A stretch of 64,000 nt of DNA from a virus (lineage: Duplodnaviria > Heunggongvirae > Uroviricota > Caudoviricetes). The notes beneath the pieces are model-generated. The model was not told where the DNA came from. It saw only the letters and a program-made list of their open reading frames with translations, and searched no databases. The position numbers and the translations under genes were made by a program. How positions within the stretch are numbered: position 1 is the stretch's first letter; the number at the start of each line of letters is the position of its first letter. Shown piece by piece: positions 3,225-56,585 of this stretch. The stretch lies in the IMG/VR virus record IMGVR_UViG_3300029705_000040, positions 38,209 to 102,208 of that record; one strand, 5' to 3'.

Positions 3225-3256
3225 TTATTTTTTTTTTATTTATATAGTAAAAATAG

Positions 3257-3285
3257 TTGATTTAATAAGCATTTTATTATATAAT
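3257..3285 (+). promoter_or_regulatory. sigma70-like promoter TTGATT-N17-TATAAT (family copy 1)
   Basis: Exact 17-nt spacer between TTGATT 3257-3262 and TATAAT 3280-3285. Confidence 0.6.
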
Positions 3286-3553
3286 ATAATTAGTTAATAA
3301 GTACTATATTAATTACTCGCGATAATTATTTAGTACGTAACCACAGCTAGTGTACCTTACTTTTCTTATTTGGGCAATAGATAGTTACACAATTTAGTGG
3401 TGATATAAATATAGTAACAGCTAGTATTTCTTACTTTATTCCTGGGATCAGGGCCGAACTTTTAATTCGATATATAGGGATACCTTACGTTACAAACAAT
3501 TTAACATCTCAGCTATTAGGACTTACTTTTAATGCATTCAGGAGCCGGGTGTC

Positions 3554-3613: not shown

Positions 3614-3673
3614 CCGTATAATAGTTCTAAAATTAAAACGAATTTTTATATCTAAATGGAGGTTTTAAGATAT

Positions 3674-5755
3674 ATGATGAAAGATTTGTACAGAGATTAT
3701 TTATTTAGTAAAAACATTTTGGTTTGCGTTGATGCGAATAATACTAAACATGATGATGTTTCAGCATTTTCATCTTTATTTGCTATCGCGAAAAAGTATA
3801 ATATTAAGATTAACGCTGGTAAAAGACTAGCTGATCAAGAAATTCTCAGATATCTTGAGAAGCAAATTCCTGGTAAAGTTACCGAAGCTTTTTATCGTGG
3901 ATTCCCTGAGTCTGTAAAAAGATTGAGTCCTACAGAGTTGCTTTTTGATCAACTTCTTCATTACTTCGATACGTATGTTTGCGGTAATTTTGATGGTGAT
4001 GCAGCTCACTCTGTTTTCGAGGAAACTTTCGAAACTGTAGCTTTCAATGAAAAAACTGAGATTAAGAATTTTGATATTCTTACAGAAGAAGATGCTGAAA
4101 AAGTTTTGCTTGAAATGGCTAACAATTTGCTTGCTTCTTCTAGACCTCTCAGTCAAGCTGCTTATGATTTGATTAAAGAGCTTTCTATCGATAAAAAGTT
4201 AATTATTACTGATGGTATTGCTAGTAGAGATACTGCTATTAAGTTATTGCTTGATTTAGAAGATGCTATTTTTGCTAAATATATCCAATTAAGTGATATT
4301 CTTAAAGTTGTTGAGGAATTGTTGCATAACAAATATCCTGGGATGACTCTTAAAAAGCTTAATCTTAAAAATCAAGATAGAAAGTTTGTTACTAATATTC
4401 TTAACATTAAATTTGCTAGTGGTAAACTTTCTAAATTCCAAAAAGCACTTTGCTTCGAAAGAAGAGCTGATTGGAAAGGTTTGCTTCACCAAATTCATTA
4501 TAAAGCAAAGAATGCTGCTGCATCTGAATTTGTTAATGATATCCGCAATGCAGAGAAAAATCTTTCTGTAATGGCTGATTTTGAAAACCTTATGATTAAA
4601 GGTGAAGTTGTTGGGGCTGCTGCGGTTCTCGCGAATAATAAGGGTAGCGGTGCTATTCTTAGAAATCTCAACTATATTCTTTCCAGATGTGAAAGTGCCG
4701 CAGATGTAGCAGAAGTTGTTAAATTTATCAAATCAGATAACCCTATTCTTCTTTTCCAACTTATTATGCAGTATAAGAATTATGTGGAAGATAAATCCGC
4801 ACGTACATTTACTTTCACTAAATACTATAAGCTTAAGACTCACAGAGAAACTTATGTTGAGCAATCTGCTAGAAAGTCTTTTGTTGGTAAAGAAATAAGA
4901 GATGCTGTTGTTCCTGCACTTTGGGATAATGTAAGATCTATCTACAAAAATAAGTTAGGGAAAGTCTATATTGATGAGTCAATGAAAAATATAGCTGTAC
5001 CTATGCAAGAAACAACTGCAGAAATGGGTTTGGGTGTACTTCCTAAAGGTACCAGAATGCATATCCCTGAAGGCAAAGTTGTTCGCGCTTTCACTTATTG
5101 GGAAAAGGTTAATGATATTGATTTATCTGCTATCGGTGTAACTGCTGATGGAAAGAGCATTGAATTCTCATGGAGAAGTATGTATAACAGACAGTCTGAT
5201 GCAGTTTGCTTCTCTGGAGATCAAACCTGTGGTTATAATGGTGGTAGCGAATATTATGACTTTAATTTGGAAGCTATCAAACAAAAGTATCCTACTATGA
5301 AATATTTAGTAGTATGCAATAATGTTTATAGCAGAGTACCTTTTAGCAAATGCAACTGTAAAGCGGGCTATATGCTCAGAGATAAAGTACGTTCTGGTGA
5401 GGTTTGGGAACCTAAAACTGTAGAATCATCCTTTAAGATTACTGGTGATAGCACTTATAGTTATATGTTCGCTATTGATGTTGAAAAGAATGATTTTGTA
5501 TGGCTTAATATGTGTAAAGATAGTATGGCTAGAGTAGCTGGTGACTCAGACTTTACATTCCTTGCAAAATATATTGGTATGACCGAAATTCTCAACGTAT
5601 ATACTTTGTTTGAAATGATGGCTACCGAAATTGTTGATAATAAAGAAGAAGCTGATATTTTAGTAACTGATGATATTCTTGAACTTGGGGAAAACCAAGA
5701 ACAGGTAAAATCTACAGATACTGAAAAGCTTCTCAAATATTTGAATAATAAGTAA
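3674..5755 (+). CDS. Hypothetical protein, 693 aa
   Basis: Long ORF; GGAGG at 3658-3662 precedes ATG 3674; TAA stop; no motif recognised. Confidence 0.7.
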   Translation: MMKDLYRDYLFSKNILVCVDANNTKHDDVSAFSSLFAIAKKYNIKINAGKRLADQEILRYLEKQIPGKVTEAFYRGFPESVKRLSPTELLFDQLLHYFDTYVCGNFDGDAAHSVFEETFETVAFNEKTEIKNFDILTEEDAEKVLLEMANNLLASSRPLSQAAYDLIKELSIDKKLIITDGIASRDTAIKLLLDLEDAIFAKYIQLSDILKVVEELLHNKYPGMTLKKLNLKNQDRKFVTNILNIKFASGKLSKFQKALCFERRADWKGLLHQIHYKAKNAAASEFVNDIRNAEKNLSVMADFENLMIKGEVVGAAAVLANNKGSGAILRNLNYILSRCESAADVAEVVKFIKSDNPILLFQLIMQYKNYVEDKSARTFTFTKYYKLKTHRETYVEQSARKSFVGKEIRDAVVPALWDNVRSIYKNKLGKVYIDESMKNIAVPMQETTAEMGLGVLPKGTRMHIPEGKVVRAFTYWEKVNDIDLSAIGVTADGKSIEFSWRSMYNRQSDAVCFSGDQTCGYNGGSEYYDFNLEAIKQKYPTMKYLVVCNNVYSRVPFSKCNCKAGYMLRDKVRSGEVWEPKTVESSFKITGDSTYSYMFAIDVEKNDFVWLNMCKDSMARVAGDSDFTFLAKYIGMTEILNVYTLFEMMATEIVDNKEEADILVTDDILELGENQEQVKSTDTEKLLKYLNNK

Positions 5756-6207: not shown

Positions 6208-6354
6208 AGCCGAGTGTTGACGTTTTATAATCTTTTTCAAACGGGGCTAACGGTAGCAAAAAGAGGACTTTTTCAAATCCGTAGATAAGTAGGTTTTAAG
6301 TTGAAAAACCAAATACCATACAGTAGTAACTGGTCAAAAAGATTCTACTAATAT

Positions 6355-6463
6355 AATTGAGTGGCTGAATGGCAAGGCACACCTCCGAAAAGGTTTGGTG
6401 GTTTCCGGTTCGACTCCGGTTTAGGTTGTGGTAACTCATACAAGTTCGAGTCTTGTCTCAATT
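6355..6463 (+). other. Aberrant ~109-nt tRNA-like element (tRNA-Ser-like D-loop, two T-arm hairpins)
   Basis: Acceptor AATTGAG...CTCAATT are perfect complements. D-loop GAGTGGCTGAA is identical to E. coli tRNA-Ser. Internal hairpin CCGG-TTCGACT-CCGG plus terminal T-arm ACAAG-TTCGAGT-CTTGT. Anticodon arm ACCT-CCGAAA-AGGT has a 6-nt loop. Confidence 0.35.
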
Positions 6464-6473
6464 ATTTCTACAT

Positions 6474-8911: not shown

Positions 8912-9274
8912 ATGAAACAACGTCACAAATATTTTAGAAACCAGCGTTACAGAAATAAAGCTGAGCAAAAAGCTCTTATGACAGGTTGGGGTTATGGAAG
9001 ATATTATTATTTCATAACTAAAGAACCAGATCCTGCTAATCTTAGAGAGTGGCCTTTTACGCCTGACATTAAAGCTAGAGGTAAGGATTACTATTGTTAT
9101 TATTGCAATAAACCTACTGTTCCATATACTATTATGCAGGGCCAACGTAGAAGGACTTTTCCCAAATATTATAGAAATTATTGTAATAGACGTCTTAGAA
9201 AAACTTTTAAAGATGAAATTTATAATAATTGCTTATATAAGAAGCTTACTGAATATTGGTGGACTATTGATTAA
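8912..9274 (+). CDS. Hypothetical basic protein, 120 aa
   Basis: ORF with AGGAG RBS. Confidence 0.6.
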   Translation: MKQRHKYFRNQRYRNKAEQKALMTGWGYGRYYYFITKEPDPANLREWPFTPDIKARGKDYYCYYCNKPTVPYTIMQGQRRRTFPKYYRNYCNRRLRKTFKDEIYNNCLYKKLTEYWWTID

Positions 9275-9280
9275 AAATAG

Positions 9281-9309
9281 TTGATTTTTACTTAGATTTA
9301 TATTATAAT
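9281..9309 (+). promoter_or_regulatory. sigma70-like promoter TTGATT-N17-TATAAT (copy 3)
   Basis: TTGATT 9281-9286, TATAAT 9304-9309. Confidence 0.55.
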
Positions 9310-9356
9310 ATATGTATAAAATATAGATATGATTGATATAATCATCTCTATAATAT

Positions 9357-12822: not shown

Positions 12823-13187
12823 TAAAACAACAGTAAGTCCAATACTTAGTAGGCTACGTAGTACTTTGATTGGCTAGTTGTTAAGTATTCGTAGTTCGTC
12901 GAAATAAAACAAACGAATTAACCGTAAGTAACGGCGAGCGAAAACGGTTAGCCAGTAGTAAGGACAATCTTGCGAAGGCACAACTGATACATATGACAGC
13001 TTCATATGTCGTAGCATAGAAAAAGTGCTCATGATGTTTTACGTAAAGTTACATCCACTGAATTCGCTCATCTAATGAGCAGCTAGTAACACTTACTTTT
13101 GATAACAGAGAACAAATAGATATTGAAACCCAGTGTTACAAATTACTTTATAAACAGCTATTGAAACTTACTTTTATCAAATTATTC

Positions 13188-13272
13188 TGCAGGGTAGCTC
13201 AGTAATCGTTAAAGAGCGCTAATCTTTGCTAAGATTAGAGGTCGTTGGTATGAAATCCATCCCCCGCCGCCA
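13188..13272 (+). other. Aberrant tRNA-Ala(TGC)-derived element with an 8-nt anticodon loop
   Basis: D-arm TAGCTCAG...GAGCG and variable AGGTC match E. coli tRNA-Ala. Anticodon stem CTAATC/GATTAG has loop TTTGCTAA (8 nt). T-loop TATGAAAT (8 nt). Acceptor TGCAGGG/CCCCGCC has 2 mismatches. G-CCA encoded. Confidence 0.4.
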
Positions 13273-13404
13273 TTTAACAGTTTCAAAATTCTGTATTAAG
13301 AATAGAGCTATTATTACTTACTTTTTGAAATGGTTATTATAGGTTCGATTCCTATACTGAGCCTTAGGCTTAGTTGTTAGTAATATAACTTATCTATTCT
13401 ATAT

Positions 13405-13481
13405 AGCTGGGTAGAGCAGTCAGGTAGCTCGCTAGGCTCATAACCTAGAGGTCCAGGGTTCGAATCCCTGCCAAGCAACCA
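13405..13481 (+). tRNA. tRNA-Met or Ile2 (CAT), with A1:A72 mismatch (initiator-like feature)
   Basis: D GAGC/GCTC, anticodon CTAGG-CTCATAA-CCTAG, T CAGGG-TTCGAAT-CCCTG, CCA. Confidence 0.65.
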
Positions 13482-13531
13482 CTCTGCGTTTTTGGCTAGT
13501 CTTCGCGAAGAAAAATAAACTAGCATAATAT

Positions 13532-13608
13532 TGGGGCGTAGCGCAGTTTGGTAGCGCGCCTGATTTGGGATCAGGAAGTCGTGGGTTCAAGTCCCGTCGC
13601 CCCAACCA
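13532..13608 (+). tRNA. tRNA-Pro (TGG)
   Basis: Acceptor TGGGGCG/CGCCCCA-A-CCA, D GCGC/GCGC, anticodon CCTGA-TTTGGGA-TCAGG (G37). Confidence 0.85.
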
Positions 13609-13856
13609 CACCAATTAACAATTATAAAACATATTTTGTACTTGTTAATTTGAGATGTACCTATAATAGGGTCGCTACTGTTGCAGCAGTAGGAAAACAA
13701 CATAAAGCGTAGTATTAAAAGAACGATTAATTAAAATAGATGCACACGGTAGCGCGCCAAAAGGCTCAGTTATAATGGTATTGAGAGACGTGGGTTTCAC
13801 TTGGAGAATCGGGAGGGTGAACGCTTTATTTTATATATTTTTAGTTGAATAATGAA

Positions 13857-13986
13857 GGTGCCACGAAGGATCTAATACCGTAACCAGTCGGTTCCTCATG
13901 TCCATATAACGCCTTTAAACTAAGGGGGTTGGAAACAGGGTTGGATTGTAAAAATAGCTGTGGTAAATGGAATGTGATGAACAGCC
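13857..13986 (+). repeat. Structured non-coding element, copy 1 (GGTGCCACGAAG...AGCTGTGGTAAATGGA..GATGAACAGCC)
   Basis: Shares its 5' 12-mer and a ~45-nt 3' block with 14296-14381. Confidence 0.5.
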
Positions 13987-14295
13987 TTTAATTATAAATA
14001 AAATAGCTGATGTACTAGTGTACAAACAGTTTCTCAGGTCGATTCGGAATCGGCTTGTGCATAAACAATTCTCTTAGGCTTACTATTGTTCGGAACTTTA
14101 GTAGCACACTTAAGAGCTTAGAGAAGTCATTGTTTGTAAGTGGAAAGATAATACGCACGTATTAAATCAAGACTCATTTTCAATAAAAGAAACTTACCAC
14201 ACCACTAACTTATTTTTAATTACCGCGGGAATCATTATTAAGTTGAGTGGAAATTTGAATTTAAGCATTTCAACAATTCAATAATCCCTATAGAC

Positions 14296-14381
14296 GGTGC
14301 CACGAAGCCGGCTGACAAGCCGAGGGGTCGCGTTGGATCTGTATAACAGCAGCTGTGGTAAATGGAGCGAAATGAACAGCC
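14296..14381 (+). repeat. Structured non-coding element, copy 2
   Basis: GGTGCCACGAAG...GTTGGATCTGTATAACAGCAGCTGTGGTAAATGGAGCGAAATGAACAGCC. Confidence 0.5.
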
Positions 14382-14716
14382 GTTAATATATTTTTTATAA
14401 GGGAGACTATTGAGATGTTTGGAATGGATCAATGGAATTTTCTTGCATATGCTTTATTAATTAATTATATGGAAGAAAATAAAAAGCTATTTGGAAGGAT
14501 TTGAGCAACTATCTTTCCAAAATATGGGCCGTTATATCATGTTAGCAGATTACCTGATTTGCACTCAGGAGGCGACCGGGGCAGCACCGGTACGGTCCAC
14601 CAGAACTAAATATAAGGTAGCAAAAGAAGTCATGAGCTTTTGAGATAACAATACTACTATTATTGAGCTTAAATTTAGTATATCGCAAATATTTTTCATA
14701 GTAGGAGAAATTATAA

Positions 14717-15643
14717 ATGCAAAGTTTTCAATGTATATGTGGAAAAATTTTTTCATCTAAACATGCTTTAAGCGGGCATCACAGTCATTGCGTAGAATAT
14801 TTAACTAATATTGGAAGATTACACATACGGCAATAGGTGGATGCTACAAATGGAGCTAAAAGTGGTGCTACACTAAAAGCAAAAAGCATAGAAAGAAAAG
14901 CGGCTAATATGCTAGCTTGGGTATAGCAGTAGAATACATGTGAAAAATGTGGTAAGATTATGCTTGAGAAATTTGGATCTGGTAGATTTTGCTCCAGAGC
15001 ATGTGCTAATAGTCATGTGAAACATGGAAAATATACAAACGAAAACGTAAAAAATAGAAAAACAAAGTCAAATAAAAAATCACACAATCAACTACTTAAA
15101 GAGTATATTTTAAGTCCACCGAAATGTTTGATTTGTGGTAAAACTCTTGCATATGAGAAACGTGCTAGAAAAACATGTTCAAAAAATTGTTGTAGTAAAT
15201 ACCTCTCGAAGTAGAAAAAAGATCTAGTTGAAAAAGTTGGCGGTAACTTAAATCAATATGGTACGCGAGGTCACGCTAGATATGGTACATATAAGGGGTT
15301 TCACTGCGATTCTTCTTATGAGCTCGCGTTCGTAATATATTGTCTAGATCATAATATTATATTTTAGAGAAACCATAAGGGATTTTCTTATAATTTTCAA
15401 AATAAAAATTATAAATATTATCCAGACTTTATTATAAATGATAAATACATAGAAATAAAAAATTACAAAAGCGATCGCGTTATTGCTAAGACTAATTAGT
15501 TTCCAATAGATAAGATTTTAGTAATTCTTTATTTATCTGATATAAAAATCTGTATAGATTATTGTATAAAGGTTTATGGTAAAAATTTTACTGAACTCTA
15601 TGATAAAGATAAACCATCATGGATGGATAAGAAAAATAGTTGA
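14717..15643 (+). CDS. PD-(D/E)XK/C2H2 freestanding nuclease, paralog 2; contains 6 in-frame TAG codons
   Basis: Verified frame ATG 14717 to TGA 15641. Only internal stops are TAG at 14834, 14924, 14930, 15212, 15365 and 15497. The C-terminus FHCDSSYELAFVIYCLDHNIIF*RN...YYPDFII...EIKNY...PSWMDK aligns with 1533-2306, and the TAG sits at the same column. Confidence 0.6.
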
Positions 15644-17661: not shown

Positions 17662-17734
17662 TATTTGCTCACAAAAATACCTCTTTCTTTTTAAGACTAT
17701 CTGGATTTATTTTCAGATGGTCTTTTATTTTTAG

Positions 17735-17763
17735 TTGATTTTTTATGTATTTTATTATATAAT
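17735..17763 (+). promoter_or_regulatory. sigma70-like promoter TTGATT-N17-TATAAT (copy 5)
   Basis: TTGATT 17735-17740, TATAAT 17758-17763. Confidence 0.55.
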
Positions 17764-17797
17764 ATATTTAACAAAAATATATTGGAGGTTAACTAAC

Positions 17798-22883: not shown

Positions 22884-23222
22884 ATGATTGAAAGAGAATT
22901 ATTCGAAGATATAGATGATGGTGAGTTAAAATCTACAGAAGAAATCTCTATGATACTTTTGGGGGAAGAGCTTTTTAACGAAGATAGTTCTGATGATGGT
23001 ATTTTATCAGATAGTAATGATCTTTATGTGGCTTCTCAAATAGTCATACAGGCAGGTTTAGCTATCTCTACCTATGATTTCAATACATATAAAGATTCTA
23101 TTTTACAATTATTAAATGGAATTTCAGAAGCTCATAATTCTGGTCAAGAAGCAGCTGTAGATATGCTGTTAAAAATAACAAAGCAATTTGTAGCTGGAGG
23201 TATCCAATGTCAAAACTTATAA
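22884..23222 (+). CDS. Hypothetical acidic protein
   Basis: AGAGGT RBS. Confidence 0.5.
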   Translation: MIERELFEDIDDGELKSTEEISMILLGEELFNEDSSDDGILSDSNDLYVASQIVIQAGLAISTYDFNTYKDSILQLLNGISEAHNSGQEAAVDMLLKITKQFVAGGIQCQNL

Positions 23223-24214
23223 TTATGGTAGGTTTACCTGGTAGTGGTAAATCGTATGCAGCACATGTATTAAATAAAGAAAATGATTATGAGATTCTAT
23301 CCAGTGATACTTTTAGAAAAAGAATGTTTGGGGATGAAAATGATCAAGCACATAATGAGCAAGTATTTGCAGAAATGCATAAATGGTTAAGAGCTTATCT
23401 TACATATGGTAGAGATGTTATCTATGACGCTACAAATACGACAGTAAAAGCTAGAAAACATATTTTCAGTCAAATACAGGGAATCCCAGAATTAGAAGTA
23501 GAAGCTATTGTAATGAACACACCTATAGAAGAATGTATATTAAGGGATTCTTTTAGAGAAAGACATGCTGGTAGCAGCGCTATTTATAAGTTTTATTTAA
23601 GTTTTCAATTTCCACAAAAATTCGAAGGCTTTGATAGAATAAAAATTTGGGGTTATAACTGTATTCCTGAGTTTAATTTAGATTTTTACAGATCTGTTAA
23701 AAATTTAATGCTAGAAACTGATCAGAAAAATCCTCATCATATATATTCTTTAGGTCAACATTGTCAATTAGTAGCTGATAATTATGAAACACGCACTATA
23801 GAAAATATGGCTGCTACTTTCCATGATGTTGGTAAGCTTTTCACTCAGAAAATTGATGATCAAGGGATTGCTCATTATTATAGTCATGATAGTATTGGTA
23901 CATATTATCTCATAAGTCATTTACCTCTTATAGCTTACTCAGGAACTACCTGGGATGATATTTTCGAAATTCTTTTTTATGTAAACTGGCACATGAAAGC
24001 ACACAAAGAATTGCGTACAGAAAAAGCTGAAAGGAAATACAGGAAACTTTTTGGCGATGAAAGGTATGAAAAGCTTCTTAAATTTGCTGATAATGATATT
24101 ATTGCAAGTGGTACAGAATCTATCCATGATGAGCTTACTAAATGGATTAAAGAAGATAAACTCACTTTAGATGAGATCCGCAACAAAAGAAAGTTTAAAA
24201 AATTATTAAAATAA
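23207..24214 (+). CDS. P-loop (poly)nucleotide kinase fused to an HD-domain phosphohydrolase; candidate RNA-repair end-healing enzyme
   Basis: Walker A GLPGSGKS near the N-terminus; HD motifs HHIYSLGQH ... FHDVGK. Confidence 0.7.
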   Translation: MSKLIIMVGLPGSGKSYAAHVLNKENDYEILSSDTFRKRMFGDENDQAHNEQVFAEMHKWLRAYLTYGRDVIYDATNTTVKARKHIFSQIQGIPELEVEAIVMNTPIEECILRDSFRERHAGSSAIYKFYLSFQFPQKFEGFDRIKIWGYNCIPEFNLDFYRSVKNLMLETDQKNPHHIYSLGQHCQLVADNYETRTIENMAATFHDVGKLFTQKIDDQGIAHYYSHDSIGTYYLISHLPLIAYSGTTWDDIFEILFYVNWHMKAHKELRTEKAERKYRKLFGDERYEKLLKFADNDIIASGTESIHDELTKWIKEDKLTLDEIRNKRKFKKLLK

Positions 24215-24220
24215 ATTATA

Positions 24221-24267
24221 AAATCCAGGTTAAATCAGTTGATTTTTACCTGGATTTATTATATAAT
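24221..24267 (+). promoter_or_regulatory. Promoter copy 7 (TTGATT 24239-24244, TATAAT 24262-24267) embedded in hairpin AAATCCAGGT/ACCTGGATTT
   Basis: 10-bp inverted repeat whose loop contains the -35. Confidence 0.55.
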
Positions 24268-24301
24268 ATATTTGTAAATAAAAGATAGAGAGGTACATAT
24301 T

Positions 24302-26572: not shown

Positions 26573-27424
26573 ATGATTTTTATTTATAAACTAATGTTTC
26601 CGAATAATAAAGTTTATATAGGGTAGACAAATAATTTAGATATACGTTGGATAAATGGTGGTAAGGGGTATAAAAGGTGTCCATACGTTTGGAATGCTAT
26701 ACAAAAATACAGCTGGACTGCTATAGAAAAAAGTATTCTAGAAGTCTGCAATGACAGGGATGAAGCTAATACTAAAGAAGTTTACTGGATAGCAGCATAC
26801 AATTCAGCTGATTATAGATTCGGTTATAATATCTAGTCAGGTGGAAAGTATAGAGAACGTAGTCCAGAAGCGAATGCACGAATTAAAGAGAAGAATTCTA
26901 ACAAAATTGTAAGCGAGGAAACTCGTAAAAAGATATCAAAAGCTAATAAAGGTAAAATAAGATCAGCTGAGTATAGAGAAGCTCAATCAAACAGATTGAA
27001 AGCTTACTATCGAATGCATGAGTCAAAATCTAAAGGTAAACCTGGTCATAAGACAAAGGGTTGCTTAGGCTAGCATTGGTATAATAATGGAAAGATATCA
27101 ATTCTATGTTTTGAAGACCAAATTCCAGATGGATATGTAAAAGGAAGAATTAATGTTAAATCAGGCTATAAAATGTCTGAAGACATTAAGCAAAAATATT
27201 CTTAGAGCCATAAAGGTAAGCACATAGGAAAAAACAATAGCAATGCGAAAGCTGTTGTTAAATTAGATTTAAGTTATAATTTTATAGAAAAATATGATAC
27301 TATAAAAGAAGCTTCTGAAGCAAATAATAATATTAGCGGGATTGGGGCCTGTGCACATTACAGACAGAAATCAAGCGGAGGGTTTATTTGGAGATTTTAT
27401 GATGAATGGAAAGATACAAAATAA
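26573..27424 (+). CDS. GIY-YIG homing endonuclease with NUMOD3-like repeats; 4 in-frame TAG codons
   Basis: Verified frame. IYKLMFPNNKVYIG*TNNLDIRW, GYNI*SGG, SEETRKKISKANKGK, GCLG*HWYNNG, KYS*SHKGK; TAG at 26624, 26834, 27071, 27203; TAA 27422. Confidence 0.7.
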
Positions 27425-28304
27425 AGATTATAGTCATATAAAAAAATGGTTTGCTGTTAGTGATGTCCACTCATATTACACCGAATTGATTAAAGCCTTA
27501 GATGAAAAAGGTTTTGATATATCAGATAAATCAATGGGATTAATCTTATGTGGCGATGCCTTCGATCGCGGTGATGACACAGTTAAAGTATTCGAGTTCT
27601 TAAAAGACTTAAAAGCAAAAGATAGATTAGTATACATAATTGGAAATCACGAAGATCTTTTGTTTGATTGCATAACAGAAATGTCATATGGACACACACC
27701 TGGTTCGCATCATTTTCATAATGGTACAGTAAAAACTATATGCATGCTTTGTGGGGAGAATGAGTGGATTGTATATCGTCCAACTAATGATATTATGGAT
27801 ATGGTATATAATAAAACAGATGAGGTAAGGTCTTTTATCAGAGAGAATTGTGTAAATTATTTCACATTAGGAAATAAGATTTTTGTACATAGTTGGATAC
27901 CCTGTGTTTCTGATGACCCTAATATGTATCACAGCAGAAAAACTTATTCTAAAATCAATGATATTTGGGATAAAAATACTGATAATATGACTATTAAAGA
28001 GCTTACTGATTATAGGGATGCTTGGGAAGCTGCTCGCTGGGGTAATCCTTTTACTCAGTGGAAGCAAGGTTTTTATCCAGAAGGAAAATGCATAGTTTGT
28101 GGTCATTGGCACTGCTCATGGGGTCATAGCCATATAGATATGAAAACACCAGAATGGCCACAGAAAAATCAAGTTAAAAAATTTGAAGAAGCATTTAAGC
28201 CATACATAAAAGATAATATTATCGGTATTGATGCATGTGTTGCTTATTCTGGAAAAATAAATTGTGTTGTTTTTGATGAAAGTGGAAATGTAATAGAGGC
28301 TTAA
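27399..28304 (+). CDS. Ser/Thr protein phosphatase (calcineurin-like metallophosphoesterase)
   Basis: SDVHSYY, GDAFDRGDD, GNHE motifs. Confidence 0.75.
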   Translation: MMNGKIQNKDYSHIKKWFAVSDVHSYYTELIKALDEKGFDISDKSMGLILCGDAFDRGDDTVKVFEFLKDLKAKDRLVYIIGNHEDLLFDCITEMSYGHTPGSHHFHNGTVKTICMLCGENEWIVYRPTNDIMDMVYNKTDEVRSFIRENCVNYFTLGNKIFVHSWIPCVSDDPNMYHSRKTYSKINDIWDKNTDNMTIKELTDYRDAWEAARWGNPFTQWKQGFYPEGKCIVCGHWHCSWGHSHIDMKTPEWPQKNQVKKFEEAFKPYIKDNIIGIDACVAYSGKINCVVFDESGNVIEA

Positions 28305-35992: not shown

Positions 35993-37072
35993 ATGCGAGT
36001 TTATAGACTTATGAAAAAGAATGCAAATAGTCCTAGCACAGAAGTATTTAAAACTTATGATTGCAGTGAGTTTGATCTTTATATAACAAAACAAATTTAT
36101 GCAGGAAATATTTCTTATGATCCTGCATGTTACTATCCGAGCAAAGAAAAGCAAGTAGATATGTTTTGCAAAGATTTATGGAAGGGCTACGAACATTTCG
36201 ATGGAATTGACCATGAGCATTGGATCGATATCCGAGACCTTGATCCAACTAAAAATAGAGATGATTACATAATGAGCGTCTTGCATGAGCATCATAAAGA
36301 AGCTAAAGAATTAGGCTATGAGGTTATGGTAACAATTTTGCAAGGCTCTCAAAATTATGGATTGGACATCTATAATGATTCTTATAAGTCTGATATTGAT
36401 TCTAAGGCTATTGTTATCCCTACTTTCGAAGATTTTGTTGTTGGTAGAAGTCCAGTAAGTCATACTCATGAGCGAGAAAATAAAGAGCATATTGATTTGA
36501 AAGATATTAGAATTATGTTTGATACTTTCAAAAAGCAGAATGTAAACTTTGTTGAAATTCTTTTTTCTGATTATTTTGTTGTTGAGCCTAAATATAAAGA
36601 CCTTTGGGAAGATTTGAGATCTTTAGCTGAAGAATTGGTGCATGCACATCCTTCTCAGACGGTAAAAACAATGAGTGGTATGAGCAAAGAAAAATATAAA
36701 GCTCTTAAACATCCATATCCCACAATTAAGTGGAAAATTGACAAATGGGGCTATGATGGAAAGCAATTACATCATATTATCCGTATAAATGATTTTATAA
36801 AAAGATATATTTATGGTTTAAGCTTTAAAGAAGCTATGCAGCCAACCGATCATATACGAGATATGCTTATCAAAGCAAAATTAAACGAGTATACGTTAGA
36901 AGAAGCCGAAGATTTGGCTAAGAAATTTGATGAGGAAACAAATCAAATTAAAGATGATTATATTAAATATCATGGCGAAAACATCACTAACGAAGCTGCT
37001 TATGATGCATTAAACAGTATTAAGGTTAAAATTTTGAAAAAATATTTTACGGAGCAACTATTAAATGATTGA
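35993..37072 (+). CDS. Hypothetical protein, 359 aa
   Basis: AGAGGT RBS. Confidence 0.65.
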   Translation: MRVYRLMKKNANSPSTEVFKTYDCSEFDLYITKQIYAGNISYDPACYYPSKEKQVDMFCKDLWKGYEHFDGIDHEHWIDIRDLDPTKNRDDYIMSVLHEHHKEAKELGYEVMVTILQGSQNYGLDIYNDSYKSDIDSKAIVIPTFEDFVVGRSPVSHTHERENKEHIDLKDIRIMFDTFKKQNVNFVEILFSDYFVVEPKYKDLWEDLRSLAEELVHAHPSQTVKTMSGMSKEKYKALKHPYPTIKWKIDKWGYDGKQLHHIIRINDFIKRYIYGLSFKEAMQPTDHIRDMLIKAKLNEYTLEEAEDLAKKFDEETNQIKDDYIKYHGENITNEAAYDALNSIKVKILKKYFTEQLLND

Positions 37073-46230: not shown

Positions 46231-47460
46231 ATGTTAAATGCAAGAGGTGTGCGTGAGCTCGCATATGTTGTGCAAGTAGATTCTGTAGAATCTATGGTTG
46301 GCTATGATAGTCTTGAAATAGCTACAGTAAACGGTTGGAAATGTGTAGTCGGAAAGGGATCTATGAAAGCTGGTGACCTAGCTATATATTTCGAAATTGA
46401 TTCTAAGCTTCCTGATGTTGAACCCTTTAATCTTAATTCTGCTTTAGTAAAATATAAGTTCAAGATTAAGACTCAACGTTTTGGTAGAGGTGGTATTCCT
46501 TATATCTCTCAAGGTTTGCTTATGTCTCTAACCGAATTTGGTGATAAGTTAAAGAATATTAAACTAGGCGATTTCCTAACTGAAAAACTTAATATTACAT
46601 ATTACGAAGTAGAAGATAATACTAGAAAAGCTAATAAAGATAAGTATACTTCCATGAGGGACCGTCATAAGAAGTTTTTCAAGACGAAGTTTGGTAGATG
46701 GCTCATGCGCCATGAGTTTACTAGAAAGATTTGTTTCCTATTCTTAGGTAAGAAGAAGGATAAGAAGACGGATTGGCCTAACTGGGTAGTTAAAACTGAT
46801 GAGGAAAGATGTCAGAACTGCTTTAATCAGATGAAGGCACTCAATAAGAAGTGGTTAACTACTGAAAAGATCGATGGTTCTTCTGCTACATATACGATGA
46901 AAAATACTAGAAATAAGAAAAATCGTGAGATGCTTGTCTGCTCTAGAAATGTTGTTTTCAACGCACCAGAAAAAGAAGCTAGAAATTTCTATAAAGATAC
47001 TGATGGTAACATTTGGCTAGAAATGGCTGCGAAGTATGATATGAAAACTGTTTTAGAAACTATTTTAGATAACGATCCTAATCTAGAATTTGTAACAATA
47101 CAGGGCGAAGTTTATGGCGGAAAGATTCAGAAGAGAAATTATGGTCCTGAGCATAGACTTGCTATTTTCAATGTCATACTTAAGCAAAATGGAAAAGCTC
47201 CAGTTCGTATGAATCCTGTTGAAATGGAAAATTACATTTTTGATCTCAATAGTAAGTATGAATTTAATCTAACAACAGTTCCTGTGTTAGAATCTGGGTT
47301 TGAACTTCCTGAAACTGTTGAGGAACTTTTGGAAATAGCTACTGGAAATTCTGTTATAGATGGTGGTCCTAGAGAGGGTATTGTTTTACGTACAGAAGAT
47401 GGTGTAAACAGTTTCAAAGCTGTTTCGAACCAATTCTTGTTAGATTTCCATAACAACTAA
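46231..47460 (+). CDS. ATP-dependent RNA ligase-like nucleotidyltransferase with an N-terminal OB/tRNA-binding-like domain
   Basis: Nucleotidyltransferase motif I, KIDGSS; N-terminal AYVVQVDSVESMVGYDSLEIATVNGWKCVVGKG resembles tRNA-binding OB folds. Confidence 0.65.
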   Translation: MLNARGVRELAYVVQVDSVESMVGYDSLEIATVNGWKCVVGKGSMKAGDLAIYFEIDSKLPDVEPFNLNSALVKYKFKIKTQRFGRGGIPYISQGLLMSLTEFGDKLKNIKLGDFLTEKLNITYYEVEDNTRKANKDKYTSMRDRHKKFFKTKFGRWLMRHEFTRKICFLFLGKKKDKKTDWPNWVVKTDEERCQNCFNQMKALNKKWLTTEKIDGSSATYTMKNTRNKKNREMLVCSRNVVFNAPEKEARNFYKDTDGNIWLEMAAKYDMKTVLETILDNDPNLEFVTIQGEVYGGKIQKRNYGPEHRLAIFNVILKQNGKAPVRMNPVEMENYIFDLNSKYEFNLTTVPVLESGFELPETVEELLEIATGNSVIDGGPREGIVLRTEDGVNSFKAVSNQFLLDFHNN

Positions 47461-49177: not shown

Positions 49178-49375
49178 ATGATCGAATATAGAGAATTAGA
49201 ACGTGATGGTCATTGCAGTTTATGTGGTGATGCTATTAAGAAGAATGAAACAAAAACTACTATTGTGCATTTTTATCACAGAAGTAAAAATCCAAAAGTA
49301 AATATTTGTAGAGAGTGTGCATATAAAATTTTTTATGCACCTAGTTTAGTAGATGAGGAAGGTATTGTAGAATGA
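49178..49375 (+). CDS. Small zinc-ribbon protein
   Basis: CSLCG...CREC. Confidence 0.45.
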   Translation: MIEYRELERDGHCSLCGDAIKKNETKTTIVHFYHRSKNPKVNICRECAYKIFYAPSLVDEEGIVE

Positions 49376-49893
49376 AAAGTATAAGACGAGGCACATTTGA
49401 AACAAACAGTAGTTCGAGTCATTCCATTTCAATTGTTGACTCAGAGTTAGTAGAATCAGAATTAAATTTAGTTGACCCTTGGGAAATTGATTACTGTGAT
49501 GACCTTGATTACAACAAACAATATGTAATGATTGATTTTCATGAGTATTGTGGCTGGGATGATCACGAAAGTCAAGAAGATAGACTAGCCCTTTGTATAC
49601 AACAATTAGTAGCTGAATTAGATCTTGATTTCTGGTGTGTTAGCAATGAAAAGTGGTATGAAAATATCAAAAAGTTGTATGAGAGTGAGAAGTTTCAAGA
49701 AATTAGTGACGAAATTGCTGATTATGTTGGTAGTCATTGCGGTGGTGTAAGAATTCGAGAACTTTCTGAAGGATATATTGACCATGATAGTGATTACGGT
49801 AGTTATGATAATTTTATGAGCTGTAATGGTCTTGATTTAGTTTGCTTTGTGTTTGCTAAAGAAGCTTATGCTCATTTTGAGTTCAATGGTTAA
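49372..49893 (+). CDS. Paralog family member A (conserved N-terminus MKSIRRGTFETNSSSSHS)
   Basis: Shares its first 18 residues with 50376, 50623, 51187 and 51574; acidic, divergent C-terminus. Confidence 0.6.
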   Translation: MKSIRRGTFETNSSSSHSISIVDSELVESELNLVDPWEIDYCDDLDYNKQYVMIDFHEYCGWDDHESQEDRLALCIQQLVAELDLDFWCVSNEKWYENIKKLYESEKFQEISDEIADYVGSHCGGVRIRELSEGYIDHDSDYGSYDNFMSCNGLDLVCFVFAKEAYAHFEFNG

Positions 49894-49907
49894 TCAGAGG
49901 TAATGAA

Positions 49908-50111
49908 ATGGATTTATTTGTTGAAATAATTGAAAATGCAACTGAGCCATGGGAAGAAATTAAATGCGAAGAATGCGGAACGGTCATTCGATTTCATCCT
50001 CTCAAAGCGATGAAAAAATGTGAGTACATAGAAAATGGTTACTATCATATAAATGAATGCATTGATTGTCCGAAATGTTACCACACTGTTTTGAGATATC
50101 CGAAGAACTGA
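49908..50111 (+). CDS. Small zinc-ribbon protein
   Basis: CEECG...CPKC. Confidence 0.4.
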   Translation: MDLFVEIIENATEPWEEIKCEECGTVIRFHPLKAMKKCEYIENGYYHINECIDCPKCYHTVLRYPKN

Positions 50112-50128
50112 TGGAGTAAAAATAGATT

Positions 50129-50395
50129 ATGACGAAAATTAACAAAAAGAAACTAGCTTTTGAAATACTTTATATTATATTTAATAGCCTCACATTCTTT
50201 TTTATTGGCGGCGGTATCGGTAGTTTGATCATAACAGCTTGTACAGGTGATCCAATGACTACATATGCATATATATGCTGTTATGGAGCGTTTCCTGCTA
50301 CATGTTTTAGAGCCATTTTTCAACGGTTAGATAAGAATCAAGAACGGTACATAGAAGATAGGGAGGAAAATTTAAATGAAAACAGTAAGGAATAA
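50129..50395 (+). CDS. Small membrane protein
   Basis: Hydrophobic. Confidence 0.4.
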   Translation: MTKINKKKLAFEILYIIFNSLTFFFIGGGIGSLIITACTGDPMTTYAYICCYGAFPATCFRAIFQRLDKNQERYIEDREENLNENSKE

Positions 50396-50621
50396 TACAT
50401 TTGAAACTAACTCATCATCCACACATTCTTTCGCTATCAGAAGGGGAAGTGATAACTGGGAGGAACTACATAAAATATTTGATACTATCTTATATGGCGA
50501 CTCATTACATAATATTGATGGTGTTGATGATATTTATGACGAAGAAGGCTTGCTTAAATTACTTAAATTATTAAACGAAGCACAAACAATTCTTATAGAA
50601 GGAACGGAGGATTGGGATTAA
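50376..50621 (+). CDS. Paralog family member B (MKTVRNNTFETNSSSTHS)
   Basis: Conserved N-terminal motif. Confidence 0.55.
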   Translation: MKTVRNNTFETNSSSTHSFAIRRGSDNWEELHKIFDTILYGDSLHNIDGVDDIYDEEGLLKLLKLLNEAQTILIEGTEDWD

Positions 50622-50622
50622 A

Positions 50623-51141
50623 ATGATTACCATTAGAAAAAATACTTTTGAAACAAATAGCAGCAGCACTCATAGCATTGTGATTCCTAAGAATGTTGAT
50701 AATAAAAAAGATTTTACTAAATCTATACACTTTGGATTAGGTGAATTTGGTTGGAGTAGAGATGTTGCTGATCCAGCTGATTACTTATATACGGCTATTT
50801 GTGATGCTTATTTAGATAGTTATTATACTGCTGAACATCAAGAAAAAGGAAAAGTATACTTACAAAAAATAAAAGATATTCTCGAGAAAAATGGTATCAC
50901 ATATGAATTCGAAGAGGTAAAAAATGGGCCTTATAATTATTTTTATGTAGATCACTGCAGTGAGTTAGATACTTTTATAGAAAGGGTCTGTAATGATGAG
51001 GACCTTCTCTTGAGATATCTTAAGTATGGTACAGTTTATACTGGTAACGATAATGATGATTATGATGAAAGCTATCACTACTTCGATGCTTACCATGAAC
51101 TAGATCCAGAAAATTATGATTACTTCTATAAATCTAATTAA
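50623..51141 (+). CDS. Paralog family member C (MITIRKNTFETNSSSTHS)
   Basis: Conserved N-terminal motif; acidic Tyr-rich C-terminus. Confidence 0.6.
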   Translation: MITIRKNTFETNSSSTHSIVIPKNVDNKKDFTKSIHFGLGEFGWSRDVADPADYLYTAICDAYLDSYYTAEHQEKGKVYLQKIKDILEKNGITYEFEEVKNGPYNYFYVDHCSELDTFIERVCNDEDLLLRYLKYGTVYTGNDNDDYDESYHYFDAYHELDPENYDYFYKSN

Positions 51142-51186
51142 ATATTTCAAAAACCTCTGTATATAATTATATATGGAGGTTATTTT

Positions 51187-51558
51187 ATGTTTACTATTAG
51201 AAATAGTACATTTGAAACAAACTCAAGTTCAACGCACAGTATAGTAATTGGTACAGAAAAGCAGTTCGAAGATTGGCGAGCAGGTACGCTTTTATATAAA
51301 CATTACGCATGGTCATCTGATAAACTCGAAAAGGGTTTTTATACATTAGAAGAATTGAAGCAATATCTAATAGATGATGGCGAGTATACAAAAGTAGATA
51401 TCGAAGCTATGGATCAAGATGAGCTTTTAGATATTCTGAGAGAAGATGATATTGTTGACTATGATAACTGGTATGAGAATCTTGAGCATGATACTCATAC
51501 ATACACAACAGCTAGCGGTGAAAAGATTGTCATCGAATGTGCTTATGGTTACGATTGA
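51187..51558 (+). CDS. Paralog family member D (MFTIRNSTFETNSSSTHS)
   Basis: Conserved N-terminal motif. Confidence 0.55.
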   Translation: MFTIRNSTFETNSSSTHSIVIGTEKQFEDWRAGTLLYKHYAWSSDKLEKGFYTLEELKQYLIDDGEYTKVDIEAMDQDELLDILREDDIVDYDNWYENLEHDTHTYTTASGEKIVIECAYGYD

Positions 51559-51573
51559 TATGGAGGAATAACT

Positions 51574-51936
51574 ATGATAAGTATCAGAAGAAATACTTTT
51601 GAAACTAACTCTTCTTCTACTCATTCTTTATCTGTTGTTAACAAAGAAGATTGGGAAAAATTTAAAGCTGGCGAGCTTTATTTCGCATCAGATAATTATG
51701 ATTTAATCAGTAAGGAAGATGTCATTGAACTAGATGCTTTCGAAGATAGCTATCCAGAATTTAAAGATCAGCCAGAAGATGTTAAAAAATATTTAATTGA
51801 AAAATTTATAAAAGATAATTGCGACGGAGAATACGCACCTATATACTCTTACAGATATCTTGATCCACCTTTCAAAATTGTTTATGATAAAAATGGAAAT
51901 GAGATGGTAGCTTTTTCATTCTATTTTTATGGCTAA
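51574..51936 (+). CDS. Paralog family member E (MISIRRNTFETNSSSTHS)
   Basis: Conserved N-terminal motif. Confidence 0.55.
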   Translation: MISIRRNTFETNSSSTHSLSVVNKEDWEKFKAGELYFASDNYDLISKEDVIELDAFEDSYPEFKDQPEDVKKYLIEKFIKDNCDGEYAPIYSYRYLDPPFKIVYDKNGNEMVAFSFYFYG

Positions 51937-56491: not shown

Positions 56492-56523
56492 CCTCGAAAT
56501 CTTTTTGGTTTCGAGGTATTTTT
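56492..56523 (+). terminator. Rho-independent terminator
   Basis: CCTCGAAA-tctttttgg-TTTCGAGG followed by TATTTTT. Confidence 0.6.
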
Positions 56524-56525
56524 AG

Positions 56526-56554
56526 TTGATTTATTCCATAAAATATATTATAAT
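56526..56554 (+). promoter_or_regulatory. sigma70-like promoter TTGATT-N17-TATAAT (copy 15)
   Basis: TTGATT 56526-56531, TATAAT 56549-56554. Confidence 0.55.
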
Positions 56555-56585
56555 ATATATGTAAATAAAAGATAGAGGTGCTGTT

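Follow-up and report, generated by a model that had tools for sequence, protein, structure and literature searches.

Two copies of a non-coding element in a phage tRNA array

The 64-kb window analyzed here, the whole stretch of DNA taken from the IMG/VR virus record IMGVR_UViG_3300029705_000040, is AT-rich (32% G+C) and phage-like. Its first 17 kb contains 28 tRNA genes, all on the plus strand. Between a tRNA-Pro gene (end at 13608) and a nuclease-like open reading frame (ORF; start at 14717) lies a stretch of 1.1 kb without any ORF longer than 64 codons, and this stretch holds two elements on the plus strand, designated copy A and copy B. The comparisons described below show that the two copies are paralogous genes of one small structured RNA, which is read from the plus strand like the nearby tRNAs. 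They belong to a real, abundant, and strand-specific RNA family of phage tRNA arrays that has a near-invariant core and a modular variable arm.

A first-pass annotation of the window had marked the two copies as a duplicated structured element with common 5′ and 3′ blocks and different middles. The two copies are real. The 12-mer GGTGCCACGAAG is present exactly at 13857–13868 and 14296–14307, and with up to two mismatches it occurs three times in the window (0.74 expected), the third occurrence being unrelated. GTGGTAAATGGA is found exactly at 13960 and 14355, and the common 3′ block (13949–13992 and 14344–14387; family D17) is 82% identical over 44 nt. The middles are unlike, with approximately 91 nt in copy A versus 47 nt in copy B. 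The ends that had been assigned were roughly right, but each element runs a few bases further on both sides. The flanks outside the assigned ends are complementary in both copies; therefore, each element is closed by a stem (P1). Including P1, copy A occupies 13853–13990 and copy B 14293–14384.

The surrounding features were less prominent than first described. GC enrichment of the stretch is present but modest (0.35–0.41 versus a window mean of 0.32). The hairpin at 14568–14601, singled out as stable, exists but is not unusually stable (z = −0.5; 58 of 200 shuffles fold equally well), and none of the retrieved loci contains a relative of it.

Relatives in uncultured phages

Many further copies were found in other phages. 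An exact 16-mer scan of IMG/VR gave 35 loci, approximately half of which have the whole 3′ block and several of which have the 5′ block 70–140 nt upstream; a looser pattern gave 32 distinct full elements. The looser pattern, applied to the GTDB species genomes, gave four real elements (in loci L147, L160, L196, and L221) among the at least 120 matches listed, and at least two of the four are in metagenome-assembled genomes. A more specific pattern, applied to metagenomes, gave at least 120 matches. A covariance model (R1) was built from the relatives of copies A and B. In the first 100 of these metagenome loci, it detected 126 elements, of which 124 are distinct; the loci from the viral and genome collections gave 63, of which 46 are distinct. 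Together, the three collection scans yielded at least about 166 distinct members.

R1 matches copy A at 13849–13994 (83.4 bits, E ~1e-22) and copy B at 14288–14389 (75.0 bits, E ~1e-20). A third copy was not found in the window either by R1 at E up to 10 or by the pattern search. Copy A is 88% identical to the element of locus L019 over 133 nt and forms a subfamily of four members with L019, L023:1071, and L349. Copy B has no close relative and ranks with the shortest members. The length of the element is approximately 90–140 nt in the window and reaches approximately 230 nt elsewhere.

The family was searched for among catalogued RNAs and deposited genomes. In INPHARED (50,697 deposited phage genomes), neither the 1.1-kb region nor a 37-nt core consensus had anything beyond chance blastn matches inside protein genes at E up to 10. 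Rfam 15 (4227 models) at gathering thresholds found only tRNAs in the whole window. At E up to 10, nothing overlapped either copy in the region 13100–15000, and no match overlapped any of the 13 elements in nine related loci. No description was found in the literature under sequence strings or the topics of tRNA array, phage, structured RNA, and theta ribozyme, in a comparison that stopped short of the candidate lists of a phage RNA survey with 10,006 candidates. The RNA family is thus uncatalogued as far as Rfam 15, deposited phage genomes, and the literature show. It has so far been seen only in uncultured phages, and there was therefore no prior reason to study it.

Consensus fold and covariation

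From 5′ to 3′, the element consists of P1 (variable pairs followed by GGU, which pairs with GCC), P1a (GCCAC with GUGGU), GAAG opposite AGCW, a variable domain, UAAA, and the hairpin P4. The linear consensus reads as follows: variable pairs of P1, GGU, GCCAC, GAAG, variable domain, NNNN-A-G-N-A-G-C-W, GUGG-U, AAA, P4, GCC, and the partner strand of P1. The fold is a rod with a side branch, in which P1 runs directly into P1a and P4 branches off between P1a and P1. A bulge (NNNNAGN) is located on the 3′ strand at the junction between P2, the hairpin of the variable domain, and the non-canonical pairs described below. Approximately 40 nt, many of them unpaired purines, are near-invariant across very different phages.

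Two alignments were used. The first contained 36 sequences from the viral and genome collections and was made with MAFFT. In this set, 86% of the cells are paired, compared with 29–50% when the partners are slid, and none of 500 shuffles reached the covariation score. RNAalifold on the alignment alone returned exactly P1 and GCCAC/GUGGU. The second was an independent set of 124 distinct metagenome sequences aligned to the model, with 93.8% pairing and with both-sided changes in P1, P1a, and P4; these sequences were fitted to the model, so their pairing counts lean toward it, a bias from which the MAFFT and RNAalifold analysis is free. Compensatory base changes, which the first-pass annotation had proposed as a check, therefore exist across the family and keep the three helices P1, P1a, and P4. 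The suggestion that the element is a structured RNA family is strongly supported by the many relatives and by the covariation in these helices.

The compensatory changes are also visible between the two copies. In copy A, the 5′ strand of P1 (UGAAGGU, 13853–13859) pairs with GCCUUUA (13984–13990), and in copy B, as read from the sequence, GACGGU (14293–14298) pairs with GCCGUU (14379–14384). The pair next to GGU/GCC is A-U in copy A and C-G in copy B. At this position, the 36-sequence set has A-U in 25, C-G in four, G-C in three, U-A in three, and G-U in one, and the metagenome set has 79 A-U, 14 U-A, 12 C-G, 9 G-C, and 5 G-U; it is unpaired in neither set. The first conserved G has the last conserved C as its partner, and A-U takes the place of this G-C pair in three of the 36 sequences and in eight of 120 metagenome sequences. 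The number of perfect pairs in P1 ranges from 3 to 14 bp and is usually 5–8, most commonly 6 or 7.

P1a is formed by GCCAC (13860–13864) and GUGGU (13960–13964) in copy A and by GCCAC (14299–14303) and GUGGU (14355–14359) in copy B. It is unchanged throughout the 36-sequence set. Divergent members found by the model have GCUAC with GUAG, and the pair of C6 with G is C-G in 95, U-A in 17, U-G in two, and A-U in one of the metagenome sequences (unpaired in 0 of 115). The minimum free energy and centroid folds of copy B both recover P1 and P1a. Two pairs at the boundary of P1 and P1a, U3-G and G4-U, are invariant. On the other strand they would be A-C mismatches; therefore, the strand is fixed, and a constraint at the RNA level is suggested.

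The junction GAAG (13865–13868 in copy A, opposite AGCU at 13956–13959) is 94–100% conserved at each of G9, A10, A11, and G12. In five sequences, G12 and the A located four bases before GUGG jointly become A and U. Because of this joint change, GAAG and AGCW are read as four non-Watson-Crick pairs, which are probably stacked on P1a and extend it. J(−6) and U14 also show an apparent coupling, and P4 may dock on the 3′ bulge.

P4 has the consensus U-G-G-A-R-Y, a loop of 4 nt (mostly GNRA or UNGA), and U-R-A-A-C-A, and is built largely of purine-purine pairs. It is UGGA-AU-GUGA-UG-AACA in copy A (13968–13983) and UGGA-GC-GAAA-UG-AACA in copy B (14363–14378), with a GNRA-type loop (GAAA). The outermost pair is U-A in 117 and C-G in six of the metagenome sequences. 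The purines R8 and R15 covary (G/G 106, A/A 31, A/G 6, and G/A 0; Fisher p ~1e-25, uncorrected for phylogeny). Copy B has the G/G pair, and copy A is one of the A/G exceptions.

The variable domain

In most members, a hairpin begins right after GAAG. The variable domain is 45 to approximately 230 nt long and contains one or more hairpins, and those of separate copies differ widely. A comparison of 146 variable domains gave more than 60 unrelated types. Inside one type, the stems covary and some single-stranded or loop segments are kept. The domain of copy A, together with the 3′ junction bulge (GUAAAAAU before AGCU), spans 13869–13955 and is conserved only within its own subfamily; its base stem, as read from the sequence, pairs GAUC (13869–13872) with GAUU (13943–13946). 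In copy B, the minimum free energy and centroid folds place the P2 hairpin (CCGGCU-GACA-AGCCGAGG) at 14308–14325.

Genomic context

Elements of the family lie among tRNA genes and share their strand. In the viral loci, every tRNA is on the strand of the element, and in the metagenome loci 411 tRNAs are co-oriented with it and three are opposite. tRNA genes are present in 73 of 91 metagenome loci, and the median distance from an element to the nearest tRNA is 220 nt. An element is followed by a tRNA (7–13 nt away in three cases), by another copy, or by unrelated ORFs. Up to five copies are present per locus, and the IMG/VR contig 3300031555_005060, which provided loci L015, L049, and L098, has at least seven. 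Copies sharing a contig are always on one strand. In 11 cases, adjacent model matches, each of which includes a flank of 3 nt per side, are only 0–8 nt apart.

A site of the form TTGACT-17-TATAAT was read from the sequence approximately 20 nt upstream of P1 in L019 and L027. In the window, a promoter-like motif, TAGTTGATTT followed after approximately 17 nt by TATAAT, is present at no fewer than nine sites, all on the plus strand (for example, 3246–3297, 9266–9332, 17720–17786, 24224–24290, and 56511–56577), and looks like the promoter consensus of this phage. It does not occur directly upstream of copy A or copy B.

The ORFs of 31 loci, each no longer than 15 kb, were compared all against all by BLASTP, and no protein family was found in more than four loci. 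The first-pass annotation had tied the element to the nuclease gene downstream of copy B. This placement does not hold for the family, which has no homologue of the nuclease near an element in 30 related loci; the true association is with the tRNA array.

This survey bears on two explanations that do not involve an RNA acting in trans. The element may be a cis-acting leader or attenuator of a downstream gene, which in the window would be an ORF of 29 codons (14415–14504) and the nuclease gene. In favor of a leader, a strong Shine-Dalgarno sequence (AGGGAG) and an ATG at 14415 come 30 nt after the end of copy B. However, the context survey largely refutes this idea: the feature downstream is a tRNA, another copy, or unrelated ORFs throughout the family, the nuclease is beside no other member, and copy A is separated from the next feature, copy B, by approximately 300 nt of non-coding DNA. 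We consider a leader highly improbable. A riboswitch or cis-regulatory leader class was likewise rejected, as no coherent set of downstream genes was found. The small ORF itself (MFGMDQWNFLAYALLINYMEENKKLFGRI; plus strand), which has AGGGAG as its ribosome-binding site, has no relatives among the fetched loci.

The other explanation is that the element functions as DNA, being a recombination or attachment site, the target of a homing endonuclease, or the remnant of an intron. A homing-endonuclease-like gene does lie 330 nt downstream of copy B, with a paralogue elsewhere in the tRNA array. Recombination sites, which had been offered as a candidate function, are contradicted by an outer stem that changes in sequence yet stays complementary, by G-U pairs that are specific to one strand, and by the nearly complete agreement with the strand of the tRNAs. 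The idea of an intron-like element linked to the endonuclease fared no better, since no Rfam intron model matched at E up to 10, no gene is interrupted, and the nuclease is missing from the neighborhood of the related elements. Moreover, every element has a closing stem of its own and can stand almost directly against the next copy. An explanation at the DNA level thus has hardly any probability left.

Comparison with known RNAs

In phage T4, two stable RNAs that are not tRNAs, species 1 and 2 (rnaC and rnaD), are encoded in the tRNA cluster and processed from the same precursor as the tRNAs. T4 has two such RNAs, whereas the present family has many paralogues with a common invariant core. We presume that T4 and its relatives were among the 50,697 deposited phage genomes that gave no match to the family.

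GOLLD and ROOL are large ornate RNAs known from bacteria and prophages and are roughly 500–800 nt in length. They differ from the present RNA, which is 90–230 nt and has a different three-helix core, and their models gave no match to it at E up to 10. The likeness is one of genomic setting only: GOLLD and ROOL are structured RNAs near tRNA genes in phages and prophages, possibly co-transcribed (PMC5737381; PMC12286853), and the present family is likewise near phage tRNA genes. GOLLD and ROOL are also reported to form homo-oligomeric complexes (PMC12286853).

Theta ribozymes are small and abundant ribozymes, similar to that of hepatitis delta virus (HDV), in the tRNA regions of uncultured gut phages, some of which recode TAG, and a role in tRNA maturation has been proposed for them (PMC10879173). 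The present family resembles them in being small, abundant, and embedded in the tRNA regions of uncultured phages. However, theta ribozymes have the HDV nested double pseudoknot, with the cleavage site directly against the tRNA (PMC10879173). In the present RNA, the 5′ G pairs with the 3′-terminal C, and this pair is exchanged from G-C to A-U; therefore, the HDV topology does not fit. No model of the HDV family matched, and only a few elements are as close as 7–13 nt to a tRNA.

The terminal stem, which is formed from both ends, is reminiscent of tRNA-like modules (tRNA, the tRNA-like domain of tmRNA, and RNAs of the YrlA or Y type), and P4 lies just 5′ of the 3′ strand of this stem, in the position of a T-arm. 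As in tmRNA, the second helix leads to a large variable domain. The elements are on the same strand as tRNA genes and are sometimes packed as tightly. However, a T-loop or D-loop consensus and a CCA or discriminator are lacking, and the terminal stem is 3–14 bp long instead of a fixed 7 bp. ARAGORN, including its relaxed intron-tolerant mode, did not call the elements, and the Rfam models of tRNA, tmRNA, and YrlA gave no match. A tRNA or tRNA-like identity was rejected.

Other identities were also tried. The hammerhead, twister, twister-sister, pistol, hatchet, and hairpin ribozymes gave no Rfam match at E up to 10. The hammerhead core (CUGANGA/GAAA) is not conserved by eye, and members have GAUAAAC in the place of G8. 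Box C/D, loop B of the hairpin ribozyme, and the HDV topology, as well as the K-turn, the sarcin-ricin loop or loop E, the T-loop, and domain IV of the signal recognition particle, were compared by eye through their consensus sequences. All of them conflict with variants among the members or with covarying pairs, such as those of P1a and the change from U-A to C-G in P4.

A resemblance to 16S rRNA was noticed at positions 352–396 and at the 530 loop. The helix order also resembles that of h4, h5, and h15 in what we take to be the 16S structure. However, when the core consensus and both copies were aligned with the E. coli rrnH operon, the best scores were reached by 33–247 of 300 shuffled queries. 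The alignment is therefore no better than that of shuffled sequences, and the idea of rRNA mimicry was dropped.

Possible function and mechanism

Among the functional readings, we favor, tentatively, a stable RNA that would be co-transcribed with the tRNAs and act in trans, with the core as a platform for binding or catalysis and the variable arm as a specificity module. The RNA would be made within the long transcript of the tRNA array or, in some phages, from its own promoter. The nucleases that separate adjacent tRNAs could release it as a discrete, stable molecule whose ends are marked by P1, and the released RNA would then act in trans. No protein recurs in the neighborhood, yet the core is near-invariant, which points to a conserved host target or to a self-contained function. 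The core may thus be a pre-organized platform for an equally conserved partner, most plausibly a component of the host tRNA or translation machinery, or it may be self-sufficient. The diverse arm would give each paralogue its own specificity, and this proposal would explain why one phage has several different copies.

Several observations weigh against this reading. The proposed processing of the RNA, its stability, and its action in trans are inferences. The single-sequence folding energies of the two copies do not differ from those of shuffled sequences (z = −0.2 and −0.35); the copies, like the hairpin at 14568–14601, fold no better than shuffles, and the case is therefore built wholly on the comparison across relatives. 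The flanks of P1 have no conserved sequence, no 3′ CCA, and no conserved boundary dinucleotide. With a P1 of 3–14 bp and without CCA or a conserved flank, nothing marks the RNA as a substrate of tRNA-processing enzymes. Since the loci compared were at most 15 kb long, a partner protein could be encoded elsewhere in the genomes. The types of variable domain that are kept across phages could reflect mere shared ancestry. Finally, invariant unpaired purines in such numbers are seen more typically in ribozymes and in aptamers for ligands than in small RNAs that bind proteins.

The last point leads to the main rival, a new self-cleaving or self-processing ribozyme with the junction nucleotides as its active site, which would cut the tRNA-array transcript or the tandem copies into units, as has been proposed for theta ribozymes beside phage tRNAs. 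It accounts for the pattern of conservation and for the close packing of tandem copies no less well than the reading favored above. The near-invariant nucleotides, approximately 40, are concentrated in the junctions, non-canonical pairs covary, and the helices vary in sequence and length. A conserved partner protein is absent from the neighborhood, copies are arranged head-to-tail with next to no spacing, and small ribozymes are already known to reside in phage tRNA arrays (PMC10879173). However, with E up to 10 allowed, no ribozyme family of Rfam was matched by the elements in the window or by the 13 elements of the nine related loci, and a self-cleaving RNA is not suggested by P1 boundaries that lack a conserved dinucleotide. 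The core is larger than in the known small self-cleaving classes, which also counts against this rival, and most copies are not beside the end of a tRNA, as the median distance given above indicates. We regard a ribozyme, taken by itself, as unlikely.

A ligand-binding aptamer in trans, such as a sponge or sensor for a small molecule derived from nucleotides, is a weaker third option. The core would be its pocket, and a junction of several helices that is closed by a variable P1 and contains invariant unpaired purines does resemble riboswitch aptamers. In addition, the tRNA region of a related phage contig (L001, 1214–1291, minus strand) has a match to the c-di-GMP-I-GGC variant (E = 6.5e-8) that is below threshold, at 45.9 bits versus a gathering score of 59. 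This match suggests that orphan aptamer-like RNAs may occur in the setting of tRNA arrays. However, the elements have no expression platform and no consistent downstream gene, and the neighboring genes suggest no ligand. Several paralogues with different large variable domains per genome are not expected for a simple aptamer. This option is considered quite improbable.

The core of approximately 40 nt is fixed across phages that have no neighboring genes in common, and the RNA must therefore do something important. A bolder proposal, which we think rather doubtful, is that the family is an unrecognized class of functional RNA of large phages, either the ribozyme discussed above or a display scaffold. 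As a scaffold, the invariant three-helix core would be common to paralogues of dozens of types, and each type would carry a structured cargo domain of its own. It would be made alongside the tRNAs and could manipulate a machinery that is conserved among hosts, for example translation, the processing of tRNAs, or defense that targets tRNAs.

The family adds a small, abundant, and easily synthesized member (copy B is approximately 100 nt) to the orphan RNAs of phage tRNA arrays, namely GOLLD, ROOL, and the theta ribozymes. Should it prove catalytic, it would found a new class of ribozymes. Should it prove to be a scaffold whose cargo domains can be exchanged, it would reveal a new mode of RNA deployment by phages against their hosts and might be used as a natural scaffold for RNA expression. 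The consensus and the covariance model make the family annotatable in viromes.

Other features of the window and related loci

A second conserved RNA-like motif (13716–13828, plus strand) is located approximately 25 nt upstream of copy A. It is also found in L013, L231, L235, and L251, and possibly in L237; in L013 it lies approximately 190 nt upstream of an element of the RNA family. The motif begins with a 5′ block (UAAAAGAACGAUYAAUNAAAAUAG), which is followed by a middle part that varies and by a hairpin whose 16-nt loop (UUGGAGAAUCGGGAGG) is invariant. Its closing helix covaries (CAC/GUG, CUGC/GCAG, CUAC/GUAG, and UUAC/GUAA), and it has no match in Rfam.

Three further sequences on the plus strand resemble tRNAs. 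The first (6354–6465) reaches the Rfam tRNA threshold at 6355–6464 (35.1 bits), but the only ARAGORN call for it is a tRNA-Pro(AGG) with an intron. The second (13186–13282) has hairpins like a D-arm and an anticodon arm and ends in CCGCCA, and the third (13296–13372) has a T-arm (GGUUCGAUUCC); neither of them is called as a tRNA.

The nuclease-like ORF downstream of copy B (14717–15643) has a paralogue at 1533–2306, also on the plus strand. Both have N-terminal Cys/His motifs and a C-terminal ...CDSS.E...YPDF...EIK. Each has six TAG codons in frame and lacks in-frame TAA and TGA throughout its length (257 codons at 1533–2306 and 308 codons at 14717–15643). The large ORFs beside them have no TAG. 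This pattern suggests that TAG is read through in the two ORFs. At the aligned TAG positions, the nuclease-like paralogue has Q, S, or V. A tRNA with the anticodon CUA was not called in the window.

At 49372–51636 (plus strand), five adjacent ORF starts share the N-terminal sequence M..(I/V)R(R/N).TFETNSSS.HS (families D7 and D9), and the region looks like a tandem array of paralogous genes.

A set of genes for RNA repair or maturation is found on the plus strand at 23207–24214, 27342–28304, 35993–37072, and 46231–47460. It includes a polynucleotide kinase-like protein (AAA_33/phrog_505), a phosphoesterase, a nucleotidyltransferase (phrog_388), and an RNA ligase (PF09414/phrog_968). The RNA ligase is present on 21 public contigs, some of which are 0.2–1 Mb long, and the polynucleotide kinase-like gene has homologues in the element-bearing loci L093 and L196. 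A protein of 699 amino acids (3656–5755, plus strand) is encoded inside the tRNA array; it has no Pfam match and corresponds to phrog_33734. Its homologues are located in the tRNA regions of L009 and L036, both of which bear elements of the RNA family.

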